17,285 bases of DNA from a virus (lineage: Duplodnaviria; Heunggongvirae; Uroviricota; Caudoviricetes). The DNA lies in the IMG/VR virus record IMGVR_UViG_2698536369_000020. One strand, 5' to 3'. Each line of letters opens with the position of its first letter. Within the stretch, counting starts at the first letter, position 1. The notes beneath the pieces are model-generated. The model worked only from the letters and a program-made list of their open reading frames with translations. It searched no databases and was not told the DNA's origin. Shown here piece after piece: positions 1 through 17,164 of the stretch. A program made the translations under genes and the position numbers.

Positions 1-981
1 ATGAACGCAATAATATCGCCCGATTATTACTATGTTCTTACCGTTGCTGGTCAGTCTAATGCCATGGCGTATGGCGAAGGACTGCCATTACCGGACAGGG
101 AAGATGCGCCTCATCCCAGAATTAAACAATTAGCGAGATTTGCGCATACGCATCCCGGAGGCCCGTCATGTCACTTTAACGACATTATTCCACTGACTCA
201 CTGCCCACACGATGTTCAGGATATGCAGGGTTATCACCATCCTCTGGCAACGAATCATCAAACACAGTACGGCACCGTTGGCCAGGCACTGCATATTGCA
301 CGGAAATTACTGCCCTTCATTCCTGATAATGCAGGGATTCTCATCGTTCCGTGTTGCCGTGGCGGATCGGCTTTTACCGCGGGTAGCGAAGGGACATATT
401 CAGAACGGCACGGAGCCAGCCATGATGCTTGTCGTTGGGGAACGGATACTCCGCTGTACCAGGATGTAGTCAGCAGAACGCGAGCCGCACTGGCAAAAAA
501 TCCGCAGAACAAATTCCTCGGCGTATGCTGGATGCAAGGCGAATTTGACTTAATGACCAGTGACTACGCGTCACACCCTCAACACTTTAATCATATGGTT
601 GAAGCCTTTCGTAGGGATCTAAAACAATACCATTCTCAGCTTAATAATATTACTGACGCGCCGTGGTTTTGCGGCGATACCACCTGGTACTGGAAAGAAA
701 ATTTCCCTCATGCGTATGAAGTTATTTATGGCAATTATCAAAATAATGTTTTAGCCAATATTATTTTCGTCGACTTCCAGCAACAAGGTGAAAGAGGACT
801 GACGAACGCGCCTGATGAAGACCCGGACGATTTAAGCACGGGATATTACGGTTCAGCGTACCGGTCACCGGAGAACTGGACGACGGCACTGCGAAGCAGT
901 CATTTCAGCTCAGCAGCCCGTCGGGGGATTATTTCTGACAAGTTTGTAGAAGCAATTTTGCAGTTTTGGCGCGAAAGGTGA
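1..981 (+). CDS. nanS: N-acetyl-9-O-acetylneuraminate esterase (SGNH-type sialate O-acetylesterase), 326 aa
   Basis: Full-length 326-aa ORF starting MNAIISPDYYYVLTVAGQSNAMAYGEG, with the GQSN esterase motif; I recognise it as E. coli YjhS/NanS, the last gene of the nanCMS operon, which lies on the far side of the leuX island in K-12. Identity is from memory, not alignment. Confidence 0.8.
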   Translation: MNAIISPDYYYVLTVAGQSNAMAYGEGLPLPDREDAPHPRIKQLARFAHTHPGGPSCHFNDIIPLTHCPHDVQDMQGYHHPLATNHQTQYGTVGQALHIARKLLPFIPDNAGILIVPCCRGGSAFTAGSEGTYSERHGASHDACRWGTDTPLYQDVVSRTRAALAKNPQNKFLGVCWMQGEFDLMTSDYASHPQHFNHMVEAFRRDLKQYHSQLNNITDAPWFCGDTTWYWKENFPHAYEVIYGNYQNNVLANIIFVDFQQQGERGLTNAPDEDPDDLSTGYYGSAYRSPENWTTALRSSHFSSAARRGIISDKFVEAILQFWRER

Positions 982-1192
982 GCGTTCATTAATTTGATTT
1001 ATTCGCATCCATCAGCGCTTTTAACTCCTCCGGCGTAAACGGTGGTTTGCGTCGGTACAACATCGCATGGCAATTAGGGCACACAGGCAGCAAAAAAACA
1101 AATGAGATCAAAGTAATATATCTTCACTTGCAGGCTTGAACAGCAGAAAATTTGCGAGCATGATCGCAATTATTTCACTGCCAGGGATATCA

Positions 1193-2065
1193 ATGGCTTC
1201 CAGTAAATCGCTACAGCAGGCAATTGCCAATATAAAAATCTGGCACAAGGGTGAACAGCGCGCGCCGCATAAGCCATTGTTATTGCTATACGTATTAGCG
1301 GGATACCTGCATGGACATCCGCGCCTTTTCGATTATGGCTCGGAAATCTACGAACCTCTGCACAGTTTACTGGAACGTTTTGGGCCACAGCGTTCACAGT
1401 ACCGACCTGATATGCCGTTCTGGCGATTACAAGGCGACGGATTCTGGCAATTACACAATGCCGAGCTTTGCTCAACAGCAGGGAGCAGCCGACAACCGCC
1501 AGTGAAGGAACTGAACGAATACCACGTTGCAGGCGGTTTCGATGAACAGCACTACGCCCTGGTAACCGGCAATAAAAAACTCATCAATACTCTGGCGCAA
1601 CAGATACTCGAAGCGCACTTCACCGAGAGTATTCAGGAAGAAATTGCTGACGAGCTGGGTTTTGATCTCCAGCAAATCCGTAAACAGCGCGACCCGTTAT
1701 TTCGCAAAAATGTATTACGTGCTTATAAATACCAGTGCGCGATATGTGGCTTTAATATGCGCCACGACGACACCACCGTCGCGCTGGAAGCGGCGCATAT
1801 AAAATGGAAACAGCACGGCGGTCCTTGTGAAATTCCTAATGGTCTGGCGCTTTGTGCAATACACCATAAAGCCTTTGATAAAGGATCGATTGGCCTGGAT
1901 GAAAATATGCGGGTACTGGTCTCGGATGCGGTAAACGGCGGAGGGATCGTTGAGAGATTATTCTGGGATTTTGACGGGAAAACTATTGCGTTGCCACAGG
2001 TGCGTAAAAATTACCCTTTTGAGGGGTTTGTGGAGTGGCATCGAAAAGAGGTTTTTAGGGGGTGA
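1193..2065 (+). CDS. HNH-family (HNH_2-like) endonuclease, possibly a modification-dependent restriction enzyme
   Basis: C-terminal motif block CAICGF...AAHIKW...NGLALCAIHHKAFDKG fits the HNH / HNH_2 nuclease signature (Cys pair, catalytic His, N..LC..HH..FD.G). N-terminal ~150 aa is a separate domain (HKPLLLLYVLAGY...). Start chosen at the ATG at 1193, which has an AGGGA Shine-Dalgarno ~6 nt upstream; the ORF track extends to a TTG at 1136. No adjacent methyltransferase. Confidence 0.6.
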   Translation: MASSKSLQQAIANIKIWHKGEQRAPHKPLLLLYVLAGYLHGHPRLFDYGSEIYEPLHSLLERFGPQRSQYRPDMPFWRLQGDGFWQLHNAELCSTAGSSRQPPVKELNEYHVAGGFDEQHYALVTGNKKLINTLAQQILEAHFTESIQEEIADELGFDLQQIRKQRDPLFRKNVLRAYKYQCAICGFNMRHDDTTVALEAAHIKWKQHGGPCEIPNGLALCAIHHKAFDKGSIGLDENMRVLVSDAVNGGGIVERLFWDFDGKTIALPQVRKNYPFEGFVEWHRKEVFRG

Positions 2066-2106
2066 GGTTGATAACTATCGCAGTATGTTCAATATTGCTG
2101 ACATAA

Positions 2107-2289
2107 TCAGTGCAGGATCTTGCCGCTAGTTTACAACTCGCCTTCGATAGCGGCGCAAAACGAGTTCTGTTGCCGATATCCTCGGCTATGGATATTCCAA
2201 CAGTTCCGGCAGAGTTGTTTACCAAGTTTCAGGTAAGTTTTTACTCAGAACCGGTTGATGCGGTTTATAAGGCGCTGGATGTGAATTAA
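2107..2289 (+). pseudogene. Start-less C-terminal remnant of a Lon-protease-like gene (BrxL-like?)
   Basis: Open frame without a start codon encodes ...LQLAFDSGAKRVLLPISSAMDIPTVPAELFTKFQVSFYSEPVDAVYKALDVN*, which matches the pattern of the extreme C-terminus of Lon-type protease domains (A..GiK.VLlP..n..dl..iP......l.v.fv..v.ea....AL). Too short for the ORF track; sits just downstream of the HNH gene. Confidence 0.35.
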
Positions 2290-2621
2290 CACATTCCTCA
2301 GCTTATTTACAAAAGGATTATTCCCATTTGATATAATATCAGTGCCAATTTACTTTTTTCAATGGAATATATCTCGGCTAAATAACAATAAAACTTATCG
2401 CTAATGGATTAAATAAACAATTTTCTAATTCATTTCACCACCTTTGATATAGAAATTGATGGTGTTGTCGCTGCCATTGCTTATGGTGATGATAAAATCC
2501 ACGTTTCTGGATCGTTGCGTAGAAAATCATCACTACCTTGATATTTTGATGCGATATGATCATACCGTTCCGTAGTACCAATTTCAATTTCAGGCTAACC
2601 CCCAACATTAAAAAAATTAGA

Positions 2622-2665
2622 GTTATTCACTAATTATATTATCAATAATATAATCAGTGAATAAC
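2622..2665 (-). terminator. Long imperfect palindrome downstream of the two-gene operon, putative rho-independent terminator
   Basis: GTTATTCACT...(24-nt AT palindromic loop)...AGTGAATAAC gives 10-bp perfect arms, 23 nt past the stop of the 246-aa gene; on the minus strand it is followed within ~10 nt by a T7 run. Confidence 0.4.
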
Positions 2666-2687
2666 ATGGACTATATAATAAATTGCT

Positions 2688-3428
2688 CTAATCATTTCCC
2701 TTACGAATATATGGGCCAAAAGCCCAAGAATCATAATAAGGGTGATGGACTAGTTTTTCATTAAATCGAACACTATAAGTTAATTTTTTTATATTTTTAC
2801 GTACAGCATTAATACTGGGCAAAGAGGAAAGATAATCTATAAACTTATCGATAGTGATTTCCCCTTCGCAACACTCAAACCCATCAATGATATTTTTCGC
2901 CATTTTTCCATTTTCATTTTTTTGATATATCACTCCAGGTATTCGTTGAAAAAAACTAGATAATGCATATTTGTCCGCTACATATGTATCATCCACATGA
3001 TATTTCCCACCGAGCATAGTTGTAGTAACAATAAGCTTATACACACCTTTGGGTTGCCATGTTGATGGTAGTTCGAATTCTTTAATGATCACATCAAGAT
3101 GATTAAGATAATGTTCAGAAATTCGATTTATTTGTTGAAAATAAGAACGCATAAATTTATTATTATGATCATGTATTAATGAGCTATCTCCAACGATGTT
3201 ACACACTTGCTGATAGTACTTACCATAATATATTGGTTGACCATTTGATTTTAGTTCTGTAAAAATCAAACAATCATCCAGGAGAATCACGCAATCGCAC
3301 TGATAATTAGCATAAACATCAATTGGAGGAGCTTTAATCCCCGCATCACGAACTTGTTTTATAAATTGTTGCTCATGAAATCGCCCTTTACTTGCTTGAG
3401 AAATTTTTTTGGAACCAAATAATGACAT
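2688..3428 (-). CDS. Hypothetical protein with NERD / PD-(D/E)xK-like nuclease signature, 246 aa (distal gene of two-gene operon)
   Basis: N-terminal region GRFHEQQ...VYANYQCDCVILLDDCLIFTELKSNGQPIYYG fits the NERD-type layout (G..xE, then acidic residue, hydrophobic strand, E-x-K). Its ATG overlaps the stop of the upstream gene (TAATG at 3426-3430), indicating translational coupling. Strongly AT-rich. Confidence 0.55.
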   Translation of the reverse strand: MSLFGSKKISQASKGRFHEQQFIKQVRDAGIKAPPIDVYANYQCDCVILLDDCLIFTELKSNGQPIYYGKYYQQVCNIVGDSSLIHDHNNKFMRSYFQQINRISEHYLNHLDVIIKEFELPSTWQPKGVYKLIVTTTMLGGKYHVDDTYVADKYALSSFFQRIPGVIYQKNENGKMAKNIIDGFECCEGEITIDKFIDYLSSLPSINAVRKNIKKLTYSVRFNEKLVHHPYYDSWAFGPYIRKGND

Positions 3429-4726
3429 TAGACTGAGCTATTTGCTATTAATGCAGGCATTAAGCATAAACCGTCCATACAGGGAATAAATGGGCAATCA
3501 TTAAGATCATGTGATTTTGAATTGAAGGTAAAATAATCTATCAGTTTTTTTGCTGCATCTGCTGCAATCCCCTTACGTTGAAAGAATGATAACCAACTCT
3601 CACGGCTTTTTATGATCAGCCAGCGATCCAACTGTAGGGGTATAGGTTTTGTCGATGAAAATCTTTTGCTCATTTCTTCTTTAGATAACTCGACTAAACA
3701 TTGATAAGCGTGCACCCAATTAAATAATGATATATTCCCATATTCTTCATGAAGGTCATCAGGAGACATATTTTCCAACTCGCTTAGATGAAATGAGCTA
3801 AAAACGCCATCAGAATTTAAGTAAGATGGCATATGATCCTTTACCCAACTATTTAGATGAAAATGTTTGTTACTAAATTCATGAACTTCGCTATATAGAT
3901 GTGACGCTCTCATCATTAGTCTATTTCTTGCAATCTCATAATCTCGGTATAAACAAAAACTATCAACCTCAAGAGAGTAAATGTTATTATCCAATTTTGT
4001 AAATACTGCACTACTTAGTCTGAAAAAGTCTCTTACTCTGCTTAATGAGTCAAAAACATTCCACTCATTAAGGTACCCTCCCATTGAAAGCAAGGTTTGT
4101 TTATTCACACAAGAAGTTAGTTTCAATGGCCCATGAGTCCGTAAATAAGAAAATATTCTTCCGGTGTAATTGGCTACCTCATCAAATGCCCTATCGATAA
4201 CTCGAAAATATTCGATATCAGGTTCAGCATGAATATTAATATTTTCAGAAACGATAAATAATGGAAAAATCCTCTTCATTTTTTTAGGATCATTGACCAC
4301 AACCAAGGATGATAATGATGATAAAAACATCTCACAAAACATGATGAGATTAAGTATTAATGCATGTGATTTTTTTGTGTTTTTACGCCAAATACCAGCA
4401 CATTTTGTAGCCGCAAAAAAAGAATTATTGATATCATGCATAATTTTACATTGACTCTCGAACTCAGAGATTAGTTCAATGTTATCAGGAAATGAGTTTA
4501 CTAGCTCATTAATACATTTTTTGAATGTATTGTTATACTCAACTTCAGTCTGAACTGAAAATCTATTATAATAGATGGAAGATATTCTCAGCACATCCAA
4601 GGCGATATCTATACTAATATCATCTCTTTTTATGTACTCACAAAAAAAAGAACAAAACTGTTTCGGGTCGTTAGCAAGATTACTGATTCTAGTGGTATCA
4701 TAAACTTTTTCCATTTTTCCATACAT
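3428..4726 (-). CDS. Hypothetical protein, 432 aa, no recognisable family (proximal gene of two-gene operon)
   Basis: Long uninterrupted ORF in strongly AT-rich DNA; no Walker A, HNH, PD-(D/E)xK or other motif that I can recognise; one ~23-residue hydrophobic stretch (HALILNLIMFCEMFLSSLSSLVVV). A second in-frame ATG four codons downstream has the AGGA box at a more plausible spacing (~11 nt). Confidence 0.55.
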   Translation of the reverse strand: MYGKMEKVYDTTRISNLANDPKQFCSFFCEYIKRDDISIDIALDVLRISSIYYNRFSVQTEVEYNNTFKKCINELVNSFPDNIELISEFESQCKIMHDINNSFFAATKCAGIWRKNTKKSHALILNLIMFCEMFLSSLSSLVVVNDPKKMKRIFPLFIVSENINIHAEPDIEYFRVIDRAFDEVANYTGRIFSYLRTHGPLKLTSCVNKQTLLSMGGYLNEWNVFDSLSRVRDFFRLSSAVFTKLDNNIYSLEVDSFCLYRDYEIARNRLMMRASHLYSEVHEFSNKHFHLNSWVKDHMPSYLNSDGVFSSFHLSELENMSPDDLHEEYGNISLFNWVHAYQCLVELSKEEMSKRFSSTKPIPLQLDRWLIIKSRESWLSFFQRKGIAADAAKKLIDYFTFNSKSHDLNDCPFIPCMDGLCLMPALIANSSV

Positions 4727-5403
4727 CCTATTGTCTAAATTACTATAAAACTAGCCACTTAACTAATAATTATAAATTTCATCTTTTACACCTTGCATTT
4801 TTATAACCAATGAAATCTACAACAAGCAACTGATGGATAATACGATATTGGTCGCATTTAATGGCATGGTAGCAAAGTTTTCATCACATACCTCCTTTGC
4901 ACCAGAATAAACGCCAGAGACCTGAAATTGCGAGTACACTACAGAAATTGTACTGCCGGTCCCATCAGCATAAAACCATAGTTACACAGGTAATCATCAT
5001 TATTCGCCAAGATAATAAATATTATTCAGTAGAATAGCGTTCTCAGGTGGTCAGTAAAATTGTCTTCAACAAGATGTCTGCGCATCTCGTCTGCTAGCCC
5101 TACATAACTGCTCTCGACCGAAACTATTTATTGAATATTCACCAAGGTGGGCGTGGAGACAAAATGACGTCTTTTGATATTAGCTACCTGAGCCACATGG
5201 TCAAAACGTTCAAATAGCATAGCGAAACCACCCTGCCCACGTAATGTGGACGATGCAGCTTCCAGCCAGAGCAAACTTGGGACCATCGACTACAAAATGA
5301 AGAATACTGAACTGCTTTTCTGGCAGGCCTATATACTGCACGGATATGGGTGATTTCAGACACAAAAAAAGCCGCTCTTGAGCGACTCGATTTGCATACG
5401 GTG

Positions 5404-5422
5404 TGGTGCGAAGGCCGGACTC
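5404..5422. repeat. attR: 19-bp direct repeat of the leuX 3' end (P4-type att core)
   Basis: TGGTGCGAAGGCCGGACTC at 5404-5422 versus TGGTGCCGAAGGCCGGACTC at 17080-17099 inside the tRNA 3' end (one C missing). The two copies bracket the whole P4-like gene set. Confidence 0.7.
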
Positions 5423-5476
5423 AAATATCAAAATAAGTCAATGATAAAAAACAAATAATAAAAAACAAAAATGAAA

Positions 5477-5497: not shown

Positions 5498-5567
5498 ATT
5501 GTTTTTCTGACCAATCTATTTTCAACCCATCAACAAATCGGAAAGTTAACTAATTTTTAATCAGTGA

Positions 5568-5594
5568 GTTTGGATCCGTAGCTCGGATCCAAAC
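5568..5594. other. Perfect hairpin: 11-bp stem, 5-nt loop
   Basis: GTTTGGATCCG tagct CGGATCCAAAC; located between attR and the crr-like repeats; no adjacent U-run typical of an intrinsic terminator. Confidence 0.4.
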
Positions 5595-5620
5595 CAGTGC
5601 ATCTTTTACCCACATAAAAA

Positions 5621-5915
5621 ATTTTTTTTCGGAAGAACTGTTCACACTGTTCACCCTTTGATTTTCTCCTTTTATTTCAGAGTAATAGATGGTGAATAAT
5701 GGGTGAAGGGTGAACATTCGATTCTTCACCTCCGGCATTCTGCCGATGTGACTTGTGCAGGGGATTAATCCTCCGCACTGAAATCACACAGGGAGAAAAA
5801 AGTTTTTTTTGATTTGATTGTTCACACTGTTCACCTTTCGTTTTTCTCTTTTAATTTCAGTGTGATAACGGGTGAATATACGGTGAAGGGTGAACAGTGG
5901 ATTGTTCACCTGCGG
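5621..5915. repeat. crr-like region: two ~120-bp direct repeats, each carrying TGTTCACC-type iterons
   Basis: Unit 1 ~5621-5745 and unit 2 ~5797-5915 both read A6-T8, TGTTCACACTGTTCACC, ~50 nt, GGTGAAnnnnGGTGAAGGGTGAACA, TTCACC. Lies immediately downstream of the alpha gene. Matches my recollection that P4 crr is two 120-bp direct repeats with type-I iterons bound by alpha protein. Confidence 0.6.
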
Positions 5916-5969: not shown

Positions 5970-8303
5970 TCAGGTTGTTGCAGGGTCGTCACATTTTGGC
6001 AGCCAGTCGCCGTAGCTTTCCTCTTTCAGCGTCAGGTTGGTCTGTATCCCCTGTTTGGTATGGCGCTTCTCGTAATTCAGTCCGTATTCCTTCAGCATCA
6101 CCGGCAGCCCCAGCCCGAACATTTTCAGACTGAGTACATTCCGGTAGCCGTTTGCCTCCATGTAGGCCAGATAGGCGTGATAGAGGTATTTACGGTAATT
6201 ACGCGGGATGATACTGGCGTTCCCCATATACATGCCGCTGGTCTGCGGCAGGGTTTCCAGATAGCCGATAAAATCAAACGTCGGGTCGGCATCCCGTTTG
6301 ATGTTCAGTGCCTCGTCTGAGTTCTGCTGGGACTGAAGCAGTGACCGGGCGAGCATCGGGTCGCTGAACTTCTGCATCAGGTGACGCACGATGACCGCCA
6401 GCTCGCGGGTGATTTTGTCCTTAAGCTGCGGGTCGCGCTCCTGCGGGGCTATCTGTTCCGGGAAGTGAATAATCACCCGCCGGCGTGACACGCCGCCGCT
6501 GCGGTCGGTGAAGCGCATCGGGTTATTGTTGACGGCCAGAATCACCGCCGGGATATGCGTGGAGTACGCATCCCGGTATTTCGGGTCAACGGACACCGCA
6601 TCGCCGCCGGTGATGGCCTTGAGTCCGGCTCCGTCGCCGCTCCATTTTTCCTGGTCCGGCAGGCGTATCAGTGAGAAGCCAGTTAACGCGGCACGTTCAC
6701 GCGGGGATTCCAGCGTCTCGATGGTGGCCGACGTGGCGTTATCCTCCCCGGCCAGCAGGGTGGCTATTTCGGCCATGATACTTTTGCCGCTGCCGCCGGG
6801 ACCGGTCACCTCCAGAAAGAGCTGCCAGTCGTAGCGGTTTGCCAGCACCATAAACAGTGCGGCCAGAATCACGTCGCGTTTTTCCGCACGACCACCGGCG
6901 GCACGGTCAAGCCAGCGCCAGAACGCGGGAGCGTGGGTTTCCAGCATTTCCCCTTCCACCGGCGGGGTGAAATCCACATCGCACAGGGTGCGCATCCAGT
7001 GTGACGGACTGTGCGGGTGGAACGAGCCGTTCTGCGTGTCGAGCACGCCGTTACGAAAGCCAATCAGGCGGCGGGAGGGGGCTTCCTGCTGCGGAATAAT
7101 CAGCTTCAGGGTGTCCACCACGGAGGCCACCTTCCCGGAGGAGAACGGCGCGCGCAGCCGCTGAAACAGCCCGGCCACATCCCGGGCAAAGTCCTGTGGT
7201 GGCAGCACCTTCCAGACACCATTTTCATAACGGGACAGAAGCTGGCCGTTGGCATCGACCGCGAGCGCCTCGCCGTAATGCTCATAGATACGCATGGCCT
7301 TTTCGCTGGTACTCATGGCGGAAAACTCCGCTTCACTCATGGTGTCGAACGGGCTTTCAGCCGGTGGCCGGATGGCATCGTAAATGGCCTTACGGGTGGC
7401 CTCCCCGCCGTACTGCGTGAAGGCATCATTCCAGTCACCGAAGACCGGTGGCAGGGCAACAACACCTTCACACGCATCTGCGGCTGCGGCGGCTTTTTTC
7501 TGGCCGTCACCGCTGAGGTCACGGTCAGCAGCAAGGACAATCTGACAGGCCGGATGCTTCTGCCGGGCAAGGCTGGCCAGAGAAAGGAGGTTCACGGAAG
7601 AAAGCGCCACCATCACCGTTTCACCGGTCAGGTGATGTACGGTAAGTGCGGTCGCGTATCCCTCCGCTATCCACAGACGTTTTCCGGCCTGATTCTGTCC
7701 TTCAAGGGTGTGACAGGTGCCCCTGACCTGTCCGCCTTTCAGGGTGCGCTTACGGCCGTCAGCACTGATTAACTGAAGGTTAACCAGTTCGCCGCTGTCG
7801 TCATACAGTGGCACCACAAGGTCACCGGCGCGCCAGCTCACGCCACCGGCTCTGTGTGTGCCGGTCAGCATCCGGCATTCCCGGCCGGGAAAGCCCTTGC
7901 GGGTCAGGTAGGCGTTACCGGTTCCGGGACGGGTTTTTGCCATCAGGGTTTGTGCCAGTGCGGCGGCGTTCTTCCGGGCGGCTTCTGTTTCAGCACCGGC
8001 GGCGGCCGTCACTGTCGGGTCAGCCGGGGGCAGGCTGCCGGTCACGGCAGCCACCTTTGCGGCCGCGTCGGACGGAGAGACACCAAACACCTTTTCAACC
8101 AGTTTCAGGCCGTCACCGGCACCACACTGATTGCAGTACCAGGTGCCGCGCCCCTCCCTGTCATCAAAACGGAAGCGGTCACTCCCGCCACAGACCGGAC
8201 AGGGCTGATGACGGTTTTTCAGCACCTGAATCCCCAGCGCCGGGAGAATACGCGGCCAGTGGCCGAGCGCATGGCTGACGGTGGCGGTTACGTTCATTTT
8301 CAT
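5970..8303 (-). CDS. P4 alpha-like primase-helicase, 777 aa
   Basis: N-terminal zinc-binding primase motif CPVCGGSDRFRFDD...GTWYCNQCGAGDG, central TOPRIM-like region, C-terminal Walker A GPGGSGKS; length equals that recalled for P4 alpha. Confidence 0.85.
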   Translation of the reverse strand: MKMNVTATVSHALGHWPRILPALGIQVLKNRHQPCPVCGGSDRFRFDDREGRGTWYCNQCGAGDGLKLVEKVFGVSPSDAAAKVAAVTGSLPPADPTVTAAAGAETEAARKNAAALAQTLMAKTRPGTGNAYLTRKGFPGRECRMLTGTHRAGGVSWRAGDLVVPLYDDSGELVNLQLISADGRKRTLKGGQVRGTCHTLEGQNQAGKRLWIAEGYATALTVHHLTGETVMVALSSVNLLSLASLARQKHPACQIVLAADRDLSGDGQKKAAAAADACEGVVALPPVFGDWNDAFTQYGGEATRKAIYDAIRPPAESPFDTMSEAEFSAMSTSEKAMRIYEHYGEALAVDANGQLLSRYENGVWKVLPPQDFARDVAGLFQRLRAPFSSGKVASVVDTLKLIIPQQEAPSRRLIGFRNGVLDTQNGSFHPHSPSHWMRTLCDVDFTPPVEGEMLETHAPAFWRWLDRAAGGRAEKRDVILAALFMVLANRYDWQLFLEVTGPGGSGKSIMAEIATLLAGEDNATSATIETLESPRERAALTGFSLIRLPDQEKWSGDGAGLKAITGGDAVSVDPKYRDAYSTHIPAVILAVNNNPMRFTDRSGGVSRRRVIIHFPEQIAPQERDPQLKDKITRELAVIVRHLMQKFSDPMLARSLLQSQQNSDEALNIKRDADPTFDFIGYLETLPQTSGMYMGNASIIPRNYRKYLYHAYLAYMEANGYRNVLSLKMFGLGLPVMLKEYGLNYEKRHTKQGIQTNLTLKEESYGDWLPKCDDPATT

Positions 8304-12175: not shown

Positions 12176-12748
12176 ATGGAAAGCACAGCCTTACAGCAGG
12201 CCTTTGACACCTGTCAGAATAACAAAGCAGCATGGCTGCAACGCAAAAATGAGCTGGCTGCGGCCGAACAGGAATATCTGCGGCTTCTGTCCGGGGAAGG
12301 CAGAAACGTCAGTCGCCTGGACGAATTACGCAATATTATCGAAGTCAGAAAATGGCAGGTGAATCAGGCCGCCGGTCGTTATATTCGTTCGCATGAAGCC
12401 GTTCAGCACATCAGCATCCGCGACCGGCTGAATGATTTTATGCAGCAGCACGGCACAGCACTGGCGGCGGCACTGGCACCGGAGCTGATGGGATACAGTG
12501 AGCTGACGGCCATTGCCCGAAACTGTGCCATACAGCGTGCCACAGATGCCCTGCGTGAAGCCCTTCTGTCCTGGCTTGCGAAGGGGGAAAAAATTAATTA
12601 TTCCGCACAGGATAGCGACATTTTAACGACCATCGGATTCAGGCCTGACGCGGCTTCGGTGGATGACAGCCGTGAAAAATTCACCCCTGCGCAGAACATG
12701 ATTTTTTCGCGTAAAAGTGCGCAACTGGCATCACATCAGTCTGTGTAA
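12176..12748 (+). CDS. psu: Psu-like polarity-suppression / capsid-decoration protein, 190 aa
   Basis: 190-aa ORF immediately after delta, followed by a terminator and cos site; size and position match P4 Psu. Confidence 0.6.
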   Translation: MESTALQQAFDTCQNNKAAWLQRKNELAAAEQEYLRLLSGEGRNVSRLDELRNIIEVRKWQVNQAAGRYIRSHEAVQHISIRDRLNDFMQQHGTALAAALAPELMGYSELTAIARNCAIQRATDALREALLSWLAKGEKINYSAQDSDILTTIGFRPDAASVDDSREKFTPAQNMIFSRKSAQLASHQSV

Positions 12749-13064: not shown

Positions 13065-14318
13065 GTGATTATTTTGTCTAGTAAAAAGTTTATTTCGCTA
13101 TTTAGTGGCGCAATGGGGTTAGACTTAGGTCTCGAAGAGGCTGGCTTTGAGCTCGTAGCTTGCGTTGAACAAGATAAGGCAGCTCTAAAAACAATTAAAA
13201 CTAATAAGCCAAATCTTGCTGTATTCGAAGGTAGTATTGTTGACTGCACTGGCTCTGAATTATTAGCACTAGCCGGAGTGAATGATAAAGAAGAAATAGA
13301 TTTAGTTGCTGGCGGTCCACCGTGCCAAGCATTTAGTGTTTTTGGAAATAGGTTAGGGCTAGAAGATGCCAGAGGGCAGCTTATTTTCGAATATGTTCGA
13401 ATGATTAAAGAATTAAACCCAAAAGTTTTCGTAATGGAAAACGTACGCGGTTTATTATCAATGTCTATAGTTCCAGCTTCTAAAAAGAAGGAGCTATCAG
13501 GCACAATCGCAGCATCTGCTTTCGAAAAAGGCTCTCTAATAAAAAGGGTAGCTAACGAATTCAATAAACTAGGTTATCATGTGGATTGCTTTGTAGTTAA
13601 TGCTGCCAACTATGGAGCCCCACAAATTAGGGAGCGTGTTATTTTAATTGGTAATCGCTTCGGAATGATAGCCAATTTCGCCTCCCCTTTATTCAGCAAT
13701 AGAGTAGAAGATAATCTTCCGCCATTCAAAACGCTGGGGGATGTAATTGGCCCAGAGAGCGGTTTTGTTGATAAATATCCAGAAGTCATGAATTTTTCGC
13801 CAAGAAAACTGAAATATCTTTCAATGGTTCCACCTGGCGGAAACTGGAGAAGCATGCCAGAAGAAATGCAAAAAGAATCTATGGGAAAAAGCTGGTATCT
13901 TAAAGGAGGAAGAAGTGCTTACTGGAGGAAACTATCTTTCCAGTTTCCTTCACCCACAGTAGTAACAATGCCAAATCATGCGGGAACAAGTATGTGCCAC
14001 CCAACTGAACTTAGAGCTATTTCTGTTGGTGAAGCTGCCGCGATACAAGAGTTTCCTGATTACTGGAAATTTGAAGGTACAACTACAGAAAAATTCAGAC
14101 AGATAGGTAACGCAGTTCCTGTCCGGTTAGGTAAAGTTGCAGGGGAAGCTGCTATGGAACTTCTTCATCGTATACAAGAAAATAAGGTTGCTGATTTAGT
14201 AACTCCAGATTATATAGAAACCCATATTAGACCGCATATTAGAACCAGATCTTTCTTTAAAAATGGTCAAGCATATAGTGGAGATGTTTCTTACTACGAC
14301 CTTGAAGAAGAAGTTTAG
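13065..14318 (+). CDS. DNA (cytosine-5)-methyltransferase, type II modification enzyme
   Basis: Canonical C5-MTase motifs in order: motif I LFSGAMGLDLG, motif IV GGPPCQAFS, motif VI ENVRGL, motif X QIGNAVPV, with a variable target-recognition region between. Low-GC. Exact start (GTG 13065 or a nearby codon) is uncertain. Confidence 0.85.
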   Translation: MIILSSKKFISLFSGAMGLDLGLEEAGFELVACVEQDKAALKTIKTNKPNLAVFEGSIVDCTGSELLALAGVNDKEEIDLVAGGPPCQAFSVFGNRLGLEDARGQLIFEYVRMIKELNPKVFVMENVRGLLSMSIVPASKKKELSGTIAASAFEKGSLIKRVANEFNKLGYHVDCFVVNAANYGAPQIRERVILIGNRFGMIANFASPLFSNRVEDNLPPFKTLGDVIGPESGFVDKYPEVMNFSPRKLKYLSMVPPGGNWRSMPEEMQKESMGKSWYLKGGRSAYWRKLSFQFPSPTVVTMPNHAGTSMCHPTELRAISVGEAAAIQEFPDYWKFEGTTTEKFRQIGNAVPVRLGKVAGEAAMELLHRIQENKVADLVTPDYIETHIRPHIRTRSFFKNGQAYSGDVSYYDLEEEV

Positions 14319-14328
14319 AATTAGTCAT

Positions 14329-14357
14329 AAAAAAAACTGGCCCTTAGGCCAGTTTTT
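14329..14357. terminator. Bidirectional intrinsic terminator between the convergent methyltransferase and endonuclease genes
   Basis: AAAAAAACTGGCC ctta GGCCAGTTTTTT: GC stem flanked by an A-run on one side and a T-run on the other, so it can terminate both converging transcripts. Confidence 0.6.
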
Positions 14358-15175
14358 TATTCATTAATCATTTCAAGTAATTTGTGCCATTGAGCTGTGC
14401 CATCAGCATTTAGAACTTGCTCATTGTACTTCTTTGCAACATGTTCTTTGAATTTTTCAATAAGATCTTTATTTTTTTCTTTTATATCTGCTTCTTTTAC
14501 AGCACGTTCTATACCTTCAAGTACCCAATGCTGGGTTTCAGCCTCACCATTGTTAAGCCATGACCAAAATTCTTTACCAGCATATACATGCACTTTGTCA
14601 CGAATATCAATCACATTGTGGTTTGCACCAGTATTGATACCTCGTAAGATTCTATACTTATCAGTTAATCCATGGCTATTTCCATAAAAAACCCCAACCA
14701 CTATATTGTCAGCCACTCCAGGATAATTATTTATGATTTCGTGAAATGCTTTATTTAGTTGGACAGCCATCGTCAATTGAATAGTCCATTTCCCTGCCTT
14801 AAGAGATAAAAGCTCAATTCTACCATCATCCCTTTGTATTACATGATCTATTTCATCAAAGCAAGGGTGTATAAAAGGCTCGTTGGCAGCTCTATAACTT
14901 TTATCTAATTTATATGCACCAAACACTCTAGGAAGTATTTTTTCATCAATCAATTTTCCAAAGCCAGTATCATGCCCAGTCATTAAATGCTTAGCAATTA
15001 TTGCTTCAACTAGTTCATCAAAATCATTAAGGGAATGATAATCAAAAATAAAAGGGGTCATAAACGGATTTATGGACATTGTTTCTGACATTAACTTTGT
15101 TAGTTTACTTTGTCTCTCCAAAATCCACCACGCAGCACACTCCTGCACTTTAAGTATAACTTCTTGCTTATTCAT
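14357..15175 (-). CDS. Putative type II restriction endonuclease, 272 aa
   Basis: Assigned by context: convergent with a C5-MTase, and its start overlaps the stop of an upstream controller-protein gene (classic C-R-M layout). I do not recognise the family from sequence alone. Confidence 0.6.
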   Translation of the reverse strand: MNKQEVILKVQECAAWWILERQSKLTKLMSETMSINPFMTPFIFDYHSLNDFDELVEAIIAKHLMTGHDTGFGKLIDEKILPRVFGAYKLDKSYRAANEPFIHPCFDEIDHVIQRDDGRIELLSLKAGKWTIQLTMAVQLNKAFHEIINNYPGVADNIVVGVFYGNSHGLTDKYRILRGINTGANHNVIDIRDKVHVYAGKEFWSWLNNGEAETQHWVLEGIERAVKEADIKEKNKDLIEKFKEHVAKKYNEQVLNADGTAQWHKLLEMINE

Positions 15176-15473
15176 GACTTATAAATCCATCTGATAAATT
15201 TTTTAATAAAATTAACCGCTGTTTTTTGTCTAGTTTATTAATCAACAAAATAATTTCTGCCAAGTCATCTTCGGGTGTGTAAAAATATGAGACAGGGACA
15301 TTTAATAAATCAGCGATTTTTTTAGTAAGTGAAAAATCGGGCATATGTTTACCTTTCTCATATTGATTCATGCGAGCACTGGCAGAGCATTCATCAATGC
15401 CAACAAGTATTCCCAACTGTTCTTGAGTTAACCCAGCATTCAATCGGGCTTTTTTTAACCTAATTGGAAGCAT
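15168..15473 (-). CDS. Controller (C) protein, XRE-family helix-turn-helix regulator, ~101 aa
   Basis: HTH motif LTQEQLGILVGIDECSASARMNQYEKGKHMPDFSLTKKIADLLNVPVSYFY; start placed at the internal ATG (15473-15471), which has an AGAGGA Shine-Dalgarno ~8 nt upstream; the ORF track's upstream start at 15551 would put the operator palindrome inside the coding region. Confidence 0.65.
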   Translation of the reverse strand: MLPIRLKKARLNAGLTQEQLGILVGIDECSASARMNQYEKGKHMPDFSLTKKIADLLNVPVSYFYTPEDDLAEIILLINKLDKKQRLILLKNLSDGFISHE

Positions 15474-15522
15474 CGAAAATCCTCTTTTTGGAGGTAGGTT
15501 TGCACTTTTTACACTCGAAATT

Positions 15523-15539
15523 ACTAAGGAATACTTAGT
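15523..15539. promoter_or_regulatory. Candidate C-box operator palindrome
   Basis: ACTAAG gaata CTTAGT, ~50 bp upstream of the preferred C-protein start. Confidence 0.35.
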
Positions 15540-15640
15540 TTTTAAAAGCAATGGAATAATTGCCTAAGAAGTTGTTAAGTGAAGGTTAAAAAGACACAAG
15601 CATTGCTGTTGATGAAGGCTAGTTCAAACTAAGCGGAGAC

Positions 15641-16927
15641 TTAATCAAGGCTATTTTTATTAAGTTTATTTGCAAATTCAAAAGCAGAGATATGCTTCTC
15701 TCTGTTGGAATAAAGATAATCTGCCCACCATTGGACCATTAGTCTGCGCTCATCTAAATGCTCAGACGTATGAATATACGCAGCTCGCACATTATTACGT
15801 TCCGAATGGCTCAATTGGCGTTCAATAGCATCATCACTCCATAATCCTGACTCTCCTAACGCACCACGTGCCATTGTCCTAAAACCATGTCCGCAAACTT
15901 CTGTTTTCGTATCATAGCCCATCGCACGCAATGCATTATTAACAGTGTTCTCACTCATAACCTTAGTTGCGTCATGATCCCCAGGGAAAAGCAGCGTCTT
16001 ATCACCACTAATCTGCTTTAACTGCTCCAACAACCCTATCGCTTGCCTACTAAGTGGAACGAGATGCTCTTCCTTCATCTTCATTCCTCTATATGAGTAA
16101 CGTACGCCTTTAATTTCCTCGCGTTTTGCAGGTATACGCCATAGAGATTTATCGAAGTCGAATTCATCCCAGCGAGCGAAACGTAGCTCACTGGAACGAA
16201 CAAATGTTAATAAAGAAAGTTCAACCGCAATTTTCGTCATCATACGACCACGATATGCAGCAAGACGTGCTAAGAACTCAGGAAAACGATGTGATGGTAG
16301 AGCTGGATAGTGCCGCGTTTTAGCTGTCGATAACGCACCAGCCATATCACTTGCAGGATTTGAATCTATATAATCGTTCTGTACGGCATAGCGCATAATA
16401 GCAGTAACACGTTGCTGAAGACGCTGCGCCACATCATGCTTACCACTGGCATCAACTTTTTTTATCGGTGCTAAAAGATGGCTAGTTTTAAGCTGTCGGA
16501 TATCAGACAAGCCAATATAAGGAAAGATATACAGCTCTAGATAGCGAAGAACACGCGCCCGATGATCCTCACTCCAACGTTTGTTGCTGGCGTGCCATTC
16601 ACGAGCAATAGTTTCAAAATTATAAGCACCAGCATTCTCTGCTTGAGCCTCTTTCTGTACTGCTTTTGGATCTATACCTTGCGCCAGCAACTTTTTCGCT
16701 TCATCCCTCCTCTTTCTAGCTTCAGCAAGCGTCACGGTCGGCCAAACACCAAAAGCGAGGCGATCCTCTTTTTTGTCAGAGGGGCGTCGGTATTTCATGC
16801 GCCAGTATTTAGACCCCTTGGCCGAAACCTCGAGATACAAACCGCCGCCATCGGCCATTTTGTAGCTTTTGTCTTTTGGCTTTGCTGTCTCGACTTGTCT
16901 AGCATTGAGCTTCATTTGGGGGCACAT
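15641..16927 (-). CDS. int: P4-type tyrosine integrase (site-specific recombinase)
   Basis: N-terminal KLNARQVETAKPKDKSYKMADGGGLYLEV, typical of P4-family integrases; C-terminal catalytic region with H..R (CGHGFRTMARGAL) and ...RAAYIHTSEH; lies next to the tRNA att site. Start ambiguous (ATG 16927 or ATG 16915, neither with a strong Shine-Dalgarno). Confidence 0.85.
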   Translation of the reverse strand: MCPQMKLNARQVETAKPKDKSYKMADGGGLYLEVSAKGSKYWRMKYRRPSDKKEDRLAFGVWPTVTLAEARKRRDEAKKLLAQGIDPKAVQKEAQAENAGAYNFETIAREWHASNKRWSEDHRARVLRYLELYIFPYIGLSDIRQLKTSHLLAPIKKVDASGKHDVAQRLQQRVTAIMRYAVQNDYIDSNPASDMAGALSTAKTRHYPALPSHRFPEFLARLAAYRGRMMTKIAVELSLLTFVRSSELRFARWDEFDFDKSLWRIPAKREEIKGVRYSYRGMKMKEEHLVPLSRQAIGLLEQLKQISGDKTLLFPGDHDATKVMSENTVNNALRAMGYDTKTEVCGHGFRTMARGALGESGLWSDDAIERQLSHSERNNVRAAYIHTSEHLDERRLMVQWWADYLYSNREKHISAFEFANKLNKNSLD

Positions 16928-17079: not shown

Positions 17080-17099
17080 TGGTGCCGAAGGCCGGACTC
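17080..17099. repeat. attL core within the 3' end of leuX
   Basis: TGGTGCCGAAGGCCGGACTC, directly repeated (19/20) at 5404-5422. Confidence 0.7.
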
Positions 17100-17164
17100 G
17101 AACCGGCACGTATTTCTACGGTTGATTTTGAATCAACTGCGTCTACCGATTTCGCCACTTCGGC
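17080..17164 (-). tRNA. leuX: tRNA-Leu (anticodon CAA)
   Basis: Reverse complement reads GCCGAAGTGGCGAAATCGGTAGACGCAGTTGATTCAAAATCAACCGTAGAAATACGTGCCGGTTCGAGTCCGGCCTTCGGCACCA: 85 nt, CAA anticodon in the loop TTCAAAA, long variable arm, CCA end encoded. Confidence 0.9.

Follow-up and report, generated by a model that had tools for sequence, protein, structure and literature searches.

What is the DNA that lies between the core gene nanS and a P4-like satellite at the tRNA gene leuX of Escherichia coli, and is it one acquisition or several? The question is raised by a stretch of 17,285 nucleotides from a virus record (IMG/VR IMGVR_UViG_2698536369_000020, Caudoviricetes), referred to below as the window, in which positions 982–5403 stand between nanS and the satellite. 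A reading made earlier from the letters of this DNA (the sequence-only reading) took these positions for a separate islet, either older than the satellite or independently acquired as a block. Separate it is, and it either pre-dates the satellite or is independent of it, but it is not one block: its parts form a mosaic and have at least four histories between them. In our opinion it very probably represents the chromosome-side, non-mobile part of the leuX defence hotspot #37, composed by successive gene replacement and deletion and not by a single insertion. The coordinates of the features are collected in Table 1.

The right-hand limit of the islet is the end of the satellite, an element that is P4-like by its integrase, its alpha primase-helicase and its Psu. 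The two attachment-site (att) copies that bound it form an imperfect direct repeat, TGGTG-CGAAGGCCGGACTCAAA (5404–5425) versus TGGTGCCGAAGGCCGGACTCGAA (17080–17102, the 3' end of leuX), and the chance expectation of the full repeat pattern is 0. Both these limits and the end of nanS at position 981 had been placed correctly in the sequence-only reading. The decisive comparison is with the strain ETEC6335, which carries the islet at a leuX site free of any satellite. There the gene order is fim, nanC, nanM, nanS, islet, leuX, ahr, the tRNA gene is intact, and no interruption of the alignment occurs where the islet passes into leuX (window 5403|5404 being equivalent to 14015|14016 of the ETEC6335 locus, L001); the islet–satellite boundary is therefore exact. 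In the uropathogenic E. coli strain 536 the same islet adjoins PAI II, the large pathogenicity island at leuX, at its distal end, which is CP4-57-like. A megablast survey of 5,426 complete E. coli genomes agrees with this picture, since the whole window was at least 80% covered in only 25 of them, the satellites of which hold different cargo, whereas the islet 982–5403 was covered to this extent in 333.

The islet itself is not uniform. Its left part, which includes a restriction gene of the sulfur-binding-domain/HNH type (SBD-HNH), has a GC content of 0.49, equal to that of nanS, and left at least a short match in the great majority of the genomes, while the nuclease gene on the right is AT-rich and confined to about 6% of them (Table 1); these counts and the GC values indicate that the left part is old and nearly species-wide and the right part rarer and foreign. 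Window positions 1–2075 are approximately 98% collinear with strains bearing quite different cargo past 2075 (N32, MS1665 and others), which makes 2075 a recurrent breakpoint. In N32 the SBD-HNH gene is followed by McrBC and a type I restriction-modification (R-M) system, in MS1665 by a membrane-protein gene and a full array of type 1 bacteriophage exclusion (BREX), PLD and AbiE genes, and in 2024CK-00188 the membrane-protein gene alone stands between SBD-HNH and the leuX flank. In K-12, as the sequence-only reading had stated, the much larger KpLE2 element holds the interval, with intB, fec, sgc, topAI-yjhQ and yjhR in approximately 40 kb between leuX and nanS.

The SBD-HNH gene, noticed from the start as an HNH gene outside the satellite, is intact. 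Its product covers the whole NCBIfam model NF045808 ('phosphorothioated DNA-binding restriction endonuclease') with 437 bits against a cutoff of 180; residues 5–142 match the sulfur-binding domain of ScoMcrA (5ZMO, E 6e-8), and the C-terminus, with Cys/His motifs, matches Pfam HNH_2 (E 5.7e-10, residues 201–255 of the 309-aa open reading frame (ORF) starting at 1136). An N-terminal sulfur-binding domain joined to a C-terminal HNH domain in about 290 aa is also the architecture of EcoWI, ScoMcrA and SprMcrA (PMC7461809, PMC6224610, PMC7470945). EcoWI, an enzyme of 33.4 kDa, cleaves GpsAAC/GpsTTC DNA, and dnd+ plasmids, which are phosphorothioate-modified, are restricted by it (PMC7461809). The window protein is 76% identical over 290 aa to a protein of E. 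coli W (291 aa, 33.41 kDa), with a single one-residue gap and with the CxxC and HNH residues conserved. The E. coli W gene is probably EcoWI itself, to judge from the strain name and the matching mass (33.41 versus 33.4 kDa); no accession for EcoWI was found in the papers. Homology to EcoWI and ScoMcrA thus makes it a predicted type IV/IIM restriction enzyme that, like EcoWI, would depend on phosphorothioation. Unlike its E. coli W counterpart it is a distinct allele located next to nanS instead of the leuX integrase: the E. coli W gene (L011 31158–32033) lies inside the leuX island, directly beside the leuX integrase and at the opposite end of the hotspot. Related enzymes predicted to sense phosphorothioation are thus found at both edges of the hotspot, on the nanS side here and on the integrase side in E. 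coli W.

Between nanS and SBD-HNH the window has lost most of a second HNH gene. Comparison of the window with ETEC6335, in which a gene for a 216-aa HNH protein is intact (L001 9008–9658), maps a deletion of 583 bp that the sequence-only reading had overlooked and that leaves only a 3' stump beside nanS. The 216-aa protein has a weak Pfam HNH match just under the cutoff and weak type IV matches in PADLOC. The annotation of N32, MS1665, 536 and 2024CK-00188 also shows this stump, as an 'incomplete' HNH endonuclease. The nanS gene is intact here (window 1–1094 was compared with L001 8242–8586), while the annotation of K-12 BW2952 and of several strains whose islets are closest in sequence (ETEC6335, N32) gives it as a truncated pseudogene. 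Antisense over its 3' end, on the minus strand at 910–1008, runs a 32-codon ORF, approximately at the place of the small protein gene ythB of K-12 and of a hypothetical protein of 29 aa in the RefSeq annotation of other strains; homology to K-12 stops at window position 984, within this ORF.

What the sequence-only reading described as a Lon-like remnant proved to be real and could be named: it is the end of brxL, matching positions 617–675 of the 675 in TIGR02653 (E 3.8e-24) and BrxL in PADLOC (E 1.7e-19), with 85% DNA identity to the brxL 3' end of MS1665 and O111 strains. The DNA behind it, 2290–2572, is collinear with 20200–20484 of the MS1665 locus (L010), although its reading frame shifts three times; it comprises the spacer downstream of brxL and the beginning of a gene of the PLD/END-nuclease type, which is annotated in TW10573 and MS1665. 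Taken together, the 463 bp at 2110–2572 are 85% identical to the brxL/PLD junction. MS1665 holds in the same slot, in order, nanS, the HNH stump, SBD-HNH, the membrane-protein gene, brxA, brxB, brxC, pglX, pglZ, brxL, the PLD gene and AbiE, and because the full array is found there we interpret the 463 bp as the deletion scar of a BREX-1/PLD array. The relic agrees with the BREX type 1 and PLD/END-nuclease arrays of MS1665 and O111 in slot and orientation as well as in the succession of brxL 3' end, spacer and PLD 5' end. In contrast to these arrays, the window keeps 59 brxL codons and approximately 62 frameshifted PLD codons, so that BREX function is impossible; the type 1 set of brxA, brxB, brxC, pglX, pglZ and brxL is complete in MS1665 and incomplete in the window.

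The right part of the islet is occupied by what had been described as a two-gene operon (2688–3428 and 3428–4726). It is in fact one gene of 678 or 682 codons, as both the ETEC6335 alignment and the gene in 340 complete genomes indicate. At 3431/3432 the window is missing 10 bp (gagcgagtca) that are present in ETEC6335, and their loss produces a stop and a TAATG stop/start overlap. A 120-nt probe across the site found the deletion in none of the 340 complete genomes carrying the gene, all of which have 130 nt there, whereas draft assemblies do encode identical products, of 428 aa on 21 contigs, of 432 aa on 7 and of 246 aa on 2; the recurrence of the exact products and the lack of the deletion in complete genomes indicate that the split allele is real but rare. 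One protein cluster of the full-length ORF has 3,303 member sequences, and the gene is intact in well-studied strains such as UTI89 and 536. According to the structural model described below, the break would fall between a probable winged-helix region (strands 409–418) and the nuclease domain. Most likely the deletion inactivates the protein in this strain. R.BspD6I works as a large and a small subunit, and by analogy the split allele, with its overlapping TAATG and its break between the putative sensing or DNA-binding part and the nuclease, might still act as a two-subunit enzyme. The palindrome downstream of the gene (2622–2665) is likely its terminator.

Upstream of the nuclease gene, the DNA at 4727–5403 had been called non-coding and decayed. 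The first part of this description stands. Pfam searches on all ORFs, distant blastn against E. coli genomes and tblastn with integrases revealed no gene or pseudogene there, no Rfam family matched at E ≤ 1, no annotation falls on it in any of the 333 genomes, and nothing is shared with the regions upstream of the homologues in five other genera. A GNAT-like motif (RGQGGFAML) suspected in one of the ORFs was dropped, having no Pfam support. Decay, on the other hand, was not demonstrated in this segment, the end of which is the native leuX terminator (5369–5388); the clearly decayed stretch of the islet is 2290–2572. The last 45–52 nt, terminator included, match approximately 1,400 further genomes, 1,772 in total, and in one lineage, represented by the 2024CK-00188 comparison, the similarity extends back to position 5265. 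The GC content rises towards leuX, from 0.35 at 4727–4999 to 0.44 at 5000–5351, and because of this climb the leuX-proximal part may be old flank DNA, the rest having perhaps arrived with the AT-rich gene. The promoter of the nuclease gene must lie within 4727–5403.

These features place the islet in a locus that is already known. Hochhauser et al. (2023) defined 41 defence hotspots in E. coli, among which #37 has occupants in 97.3% of genomes and contains 31 types of defence systems; BREX is limited to hotspots #1 and #37, P4-like satellites are sometimes present in #37, no mobile element is detectable in 68% of cases, and many of its occupants carry lone integrases (PMC10121019). The gene leuX anchors this hotspot (PMC12707154, an EcoSal Plus review of 2025). 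The position seen here is the same, with leuX as the anchor and the nan and fim genes alongside in the order observed in ETEC6335; the slot contains recognised defence genes (SBD-HNH and the relics of BrxL and the PLD/END nuclease), and its defence cargo varies between strains, from McrBC with type I R-M through BREX-1/PLD/AbiE and the membrane-protein gene to KpLE2. The islet thus shares with the published hotspot (PMC10121019, PMC12707154) its leuX–nan/fim position, its highly variable restriction and defence cargo, which ranges over type IV enzymes, BREX, AbiE, type I R-M and P4-like satellites, and the lack of a recognisable mobile element, usual among the occupants. It differs in that the combination of SBD-HNH, a brxL/PLD scar and the 678-aa nuclease was not found described in these papers, and in that the interval published as one consists here of a satellite bounded by att repeats and an immobile islet beyond the ancestral leuX terminator. 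As a kind, the phenomenon is known from that work, and the islet is a worked example of it.

Other accounts of the islet were weighed against this one. That it is part of the P4-like satellite, the true end of which would be a cryptic, degenerate att copy near nanS, is suggested by adjacency and by nothing else. The best local alignment to leuX in 1–5395 is of 11 nt with a score of 22, a chance-level result given a mean of 21.4 and a maximum of 30 in shuffled sequences, and the failure of the sequence-only reading to find a second leuX-derived repeat is thereby borne out. ETEC6335 has the islet with no satellite, 536 has it beside a different element, and P4-like satellites with other cargo adjoin different islets; the empty-site comparison rules this account out, and we give it practically no credence. 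Hardly more credible is the view that the whole interval is core E. coli DNA of which K-12 shows a deletion or replacement variant. It draws on the short matches to the SBD-HNH segment in 4,950 of the 5,426 genomes and on the K-12 chromosome, where a 248-nt SBD-HNH pseudogene of 90% identity is located between ythB and yjhR. For 982–2075, which is close to core in both distribution and GC, this view is partly true; for 2076–5351 it is refuted by the occurrence of 2301–5403 in about 334 genomes (6%), by a GC content of 0.33–0.40 and by the other cargo that fills the same slot in other strains.

The account that deserves more attention, improbable as we consider it, is that erosion of one or several older integrative islands near leuX left the islet behind, their integrases and att sites having been deleted later in the course of tandem accretion and decay. 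We keep it because of MS1665, whose BREX–PLD–AbiE block ends in a truncated tyrosine integrase (L010 25160–25801), separated by 151 nt from the leuX flank/att copy and placed towards nanS relative to this variant flank. The 76%-identical SBD-HNH gene of E. coli W inside the leuX island, the lone integrases of many hotspot #37 occupants (PMC10121019) and a Pectobacterium homologue of the nuclease gene beside an integrase are in line with it too. An integrant at the tRNA 3' end would, however, sit between the tRNA gene and its flank, whereas the islet is found on the far side of the ancestral leuX flank with its terminator, and for this reason it cannot have entered by ordinary tRNA-end integration; the integrase remnant of MS1665 is itself not where integration into the tRNA end would be expected to put it. 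In 982–5395 neither an att copy nor a trace of an integrase was detected: tblastn with five tyrosine integrases returned nothing from the islet at E < 0.1, and the RefSeq annotation of the same DNA in ETEC6335 and 536 contains no integrase or transposase pseudogene, in agreement with the sequence-only reading. The islet thus possesses neither the att repeat nor the integrase or transposase, or remnant of either, that an autonomous tRNA-integrated genomic island would have. The SBD-HNH block, furthermore, is core-like in GC and nearly species-wide. One point nevertheless counts against a history of replacement and deletion in a non-mobile slot: the remnant in MS1665, in view of which integrative elements may have delivered some of the cargo. 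The route of cargo turnover is inferred and not observed, and the activity of the islet genes is predicted from sequence.

On the reading preferred here, in which the mosaic occupies a non-mobile slot, its history might be as follows. An old, near-species-wide type IV restriction module would have stood beside nanS, with one HNH gene now a stump and one SBD-HNH gene intact, the enzyme of which would cut incoming phosphorothioate-modified DNA. A BREX type 1 and PLD/END-nuclease array, still present at this place in other strains, would have shrunk to the 463-bp scar. The AT-rich 678-aa nuclease gene would have been acquired horizontally and then broken by the 10-bp deletion at a domain boundary. 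The cargo probably turned over by homologous recombination through the conserved flanks and by illegitimate deletions. Later, a P4-like satellite would have integrated into the 3' end of leuX and pushed the old end of the tRNA gene, the terminator and the islet 11.7 kb away from the tRNA. From this point of view the "leuX island" of the window is two independent things, one a mobile P4-like satellite that carries a type II R-M system, the other an islet on the chromosome side that is immobile. The latter records the turnover of a hotspot with no visible mobile element, in which an old restriction gene is intact, a BREX/PLD array has left a scar and a newer nuclease gene is freshly broken, and it illustrates, at the level of single bases, the kind of case that makes up 68% of the occupants of hotspot #37, those in which no means of mobilisation was found by Hochhauser et al. 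(PMC10121019). In other respects the islet is ordinary and its analysis mainly a clarification; the modest lead that it offers is the uncharacterised family of 678-aa nucleases with its natural split allele.

Table 1. Features and segments of the window. Coverage values refer to the survey of 5,426 complete E. coli genomes.
Feature	Position	Strand	Remarks
nanS (sialate O-acetylesterase)	1–981	+	326-aa ORF, Pfam SASA; RefSeq genomes annotate nanS under the match; core gene, left anchor of the islet
3' stump of the 216-aa HNH endonuclease gene (type IV-like)	989–1093	-	remainder lost in the 583-bp deletion
Sulfur-binding-domain/HNH endonuclease gene	1193–2065	+	intact, 290 aa, 33.2 kDa, GC 0.489
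brxL 3' relic (BREX type 1 Lon-like gene)	2110–2289	+	last 59 codons
Spacer downstream of brxL and ~62 codons of the 5' end (from ~2388) of a PLD-like 'anti-phage END nuclease' gene	2290–2572	+	three frameshifts
Palindrome with 20-bp stem, then T run	2622–2665	-	95% complementary inverted repeat; terminator-like site
678-aa gene (682 from upstream ATG)	2688–4726	-	AT-rich, GC 0.33, split by deletion
C-terminal fragment, 246 aa (MSLFGS...)	2688–3428	-	complete PD-(D/E)xK nuclease domain
N-terminal fragment, 432 aa (428 from annotated start 4714; ends ...ANSSV*)	3428–4726	-	all-helical region and probable winged-helix region
Non-coding DNA upstream of the nuclease gene	4727–5351		no gene or RNA family detected
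Ancestral leuX 3' flank with intrinsic terminator	5352–5403	-	hairpin 5388–5369 and T run (terminator scan); directly joined to leuX in ETEC6335
attR, displaced copy of the leuX 3' end	5404–5425		one base missing, one mismatch; satellite boundary
Alpha-type primase-helicase	5970–8303		satellite
Psu	12176–12748		satellite
m5C methyltransferase	13065–14318	+	satellite type II R-M
EcoO109I-like endonuclease	14357–15175	-	satellite type II R-M
C control protein	15168–15551	-	satellite type II R-M
P4-type integrase	15641–16927		satellite; adjoins leuX
leuX, tRNA-Leu(CAA)	17080–17164	-	sole tRNA of the window
SBD-HNH segment	982–2300		at least 80% covered in 1,393/5,426; at least a short match in 4,950 (91%)
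Nuclease gene segment	2301–4726		at least 80% covered in 334/5,426 (~6%)
Upstream DNA segment	4727–5403		at least 80% covered in 333/5,426

The 678-aa protein is probably a stand-alone sensor-plus-nuclease serving as a restriction or defence factor, in which a helical N-terminal region is followed by a probable winged helix and by a PD-(D/E)xK domain at the C-terminus. Its AlphaFold2 model based on 55 diverse sequences reached a predicted local distance difference test score (pLDDT) of 91.4 and a predicted template modelling score (pTM) of 0.90, and the C-terminal domain has the restriction-endonuclease-like fold. An earlier model from 7 close homologues, with a pLDDT of 47, was discarded. In the alignment of the 55 sequences, the mean column identity of which is 29%, the residues D477, E490 and K492 of the PD-(D/E)xK triad are invariant, and so are Q531 and D584. 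A profile search of 1.84 billion cluster representatives recovered 360 relatives at E ≤ 0.001, most of them approximately 650 aa long and matched along most of their length. Repeating the homologue search with a profile of the 55 sequences brought up no protein beyond the 91 already recovered, and a search for related loci in genome contigs yielded just two, both already known. In five unrelated loci, from Izhakiella, Pectobacterium, Pantoea, Xenorhabdus and one enterobacterial contig, the homologues are solitary, their neighbourhoods differ and no conserved partner accompanies them.

With other stand-alone PD-(D/E)xK nucleases, namely Upx (PMC13099982), Shedu SduA, the NERD proteins and the FokI/BspD6I cleavage domains, the protein has in common the restriction-endonuclease-like fold with its D...ExK triad, the union of a putative sensor or DNA-binding part and a nuclease in one gene, and a location in a defence hotspot. 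It differs from them in showing no significant sequence similarity to any of them in this analysis and in an N-terminal helical region of approximately 350 residues with no specific solved relative; its defence role is putative. A number of results speak against the assignment to defence. Nothing in Pfam, NCBIfam or PADLOC matched the protein above threshold, and the weak PADLOC match to PDC-M29B is marginal (E 0.0012). The E. coli protein does not reach the gathering score of Pfam NERD (PF08378), and NERD matches among the 55 homologues are weak and restricted to five (best E 2e-4), with Card1-endonuclease matches in two. Foldseek gave no significant whole-chain match of the model in the Protein Data Bank (PDB), and the profile search of PDB sequences with the family gave no match either. 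The contexts of the homologues in other genera, finally, are not clearly defence islands. We would therefore advance only tentatively, and with more doubt than confidence, the idea that the family is an undescribed single-gene anti-phage or anti-plasmid system and its split allele perhaps a working two-subunit enzyme.

Some observations concern the satellite and its ends. Between its psu and int genes the satellite has a slot for variable cargo (13065–15551), which contains a complete type II R-M system with a GC content of 0.33–0.40; in related satellites the same slot is filled by TIR, Kiwa, retron or Hachiman-like genes. Just within the attR end there are two direct repeats of 120 nt (5616–5735 and 5796–5915), 79% identical and 180 nt apart, each encoding a small ORF of a paralogous pair on the minus strand (5550–5738 and 5784–5909). 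In the window, in MS1665 and in TW10573 alike, a single C is missing at the same place of the displaced leuX 3' copy (TGGTG-CGAAGG), although the neighbouring elements differ; this loss, common to all three, may go back to one ancient integration or to the attP sequence of the elements concerned. In MS1665 (L010 25953–26026) and TW10573 (L003 17730–17835) the terminator hairpin beside the att copy has a wholly different stem (GACCTCAGTTGAGGTC) with conserved flanks.

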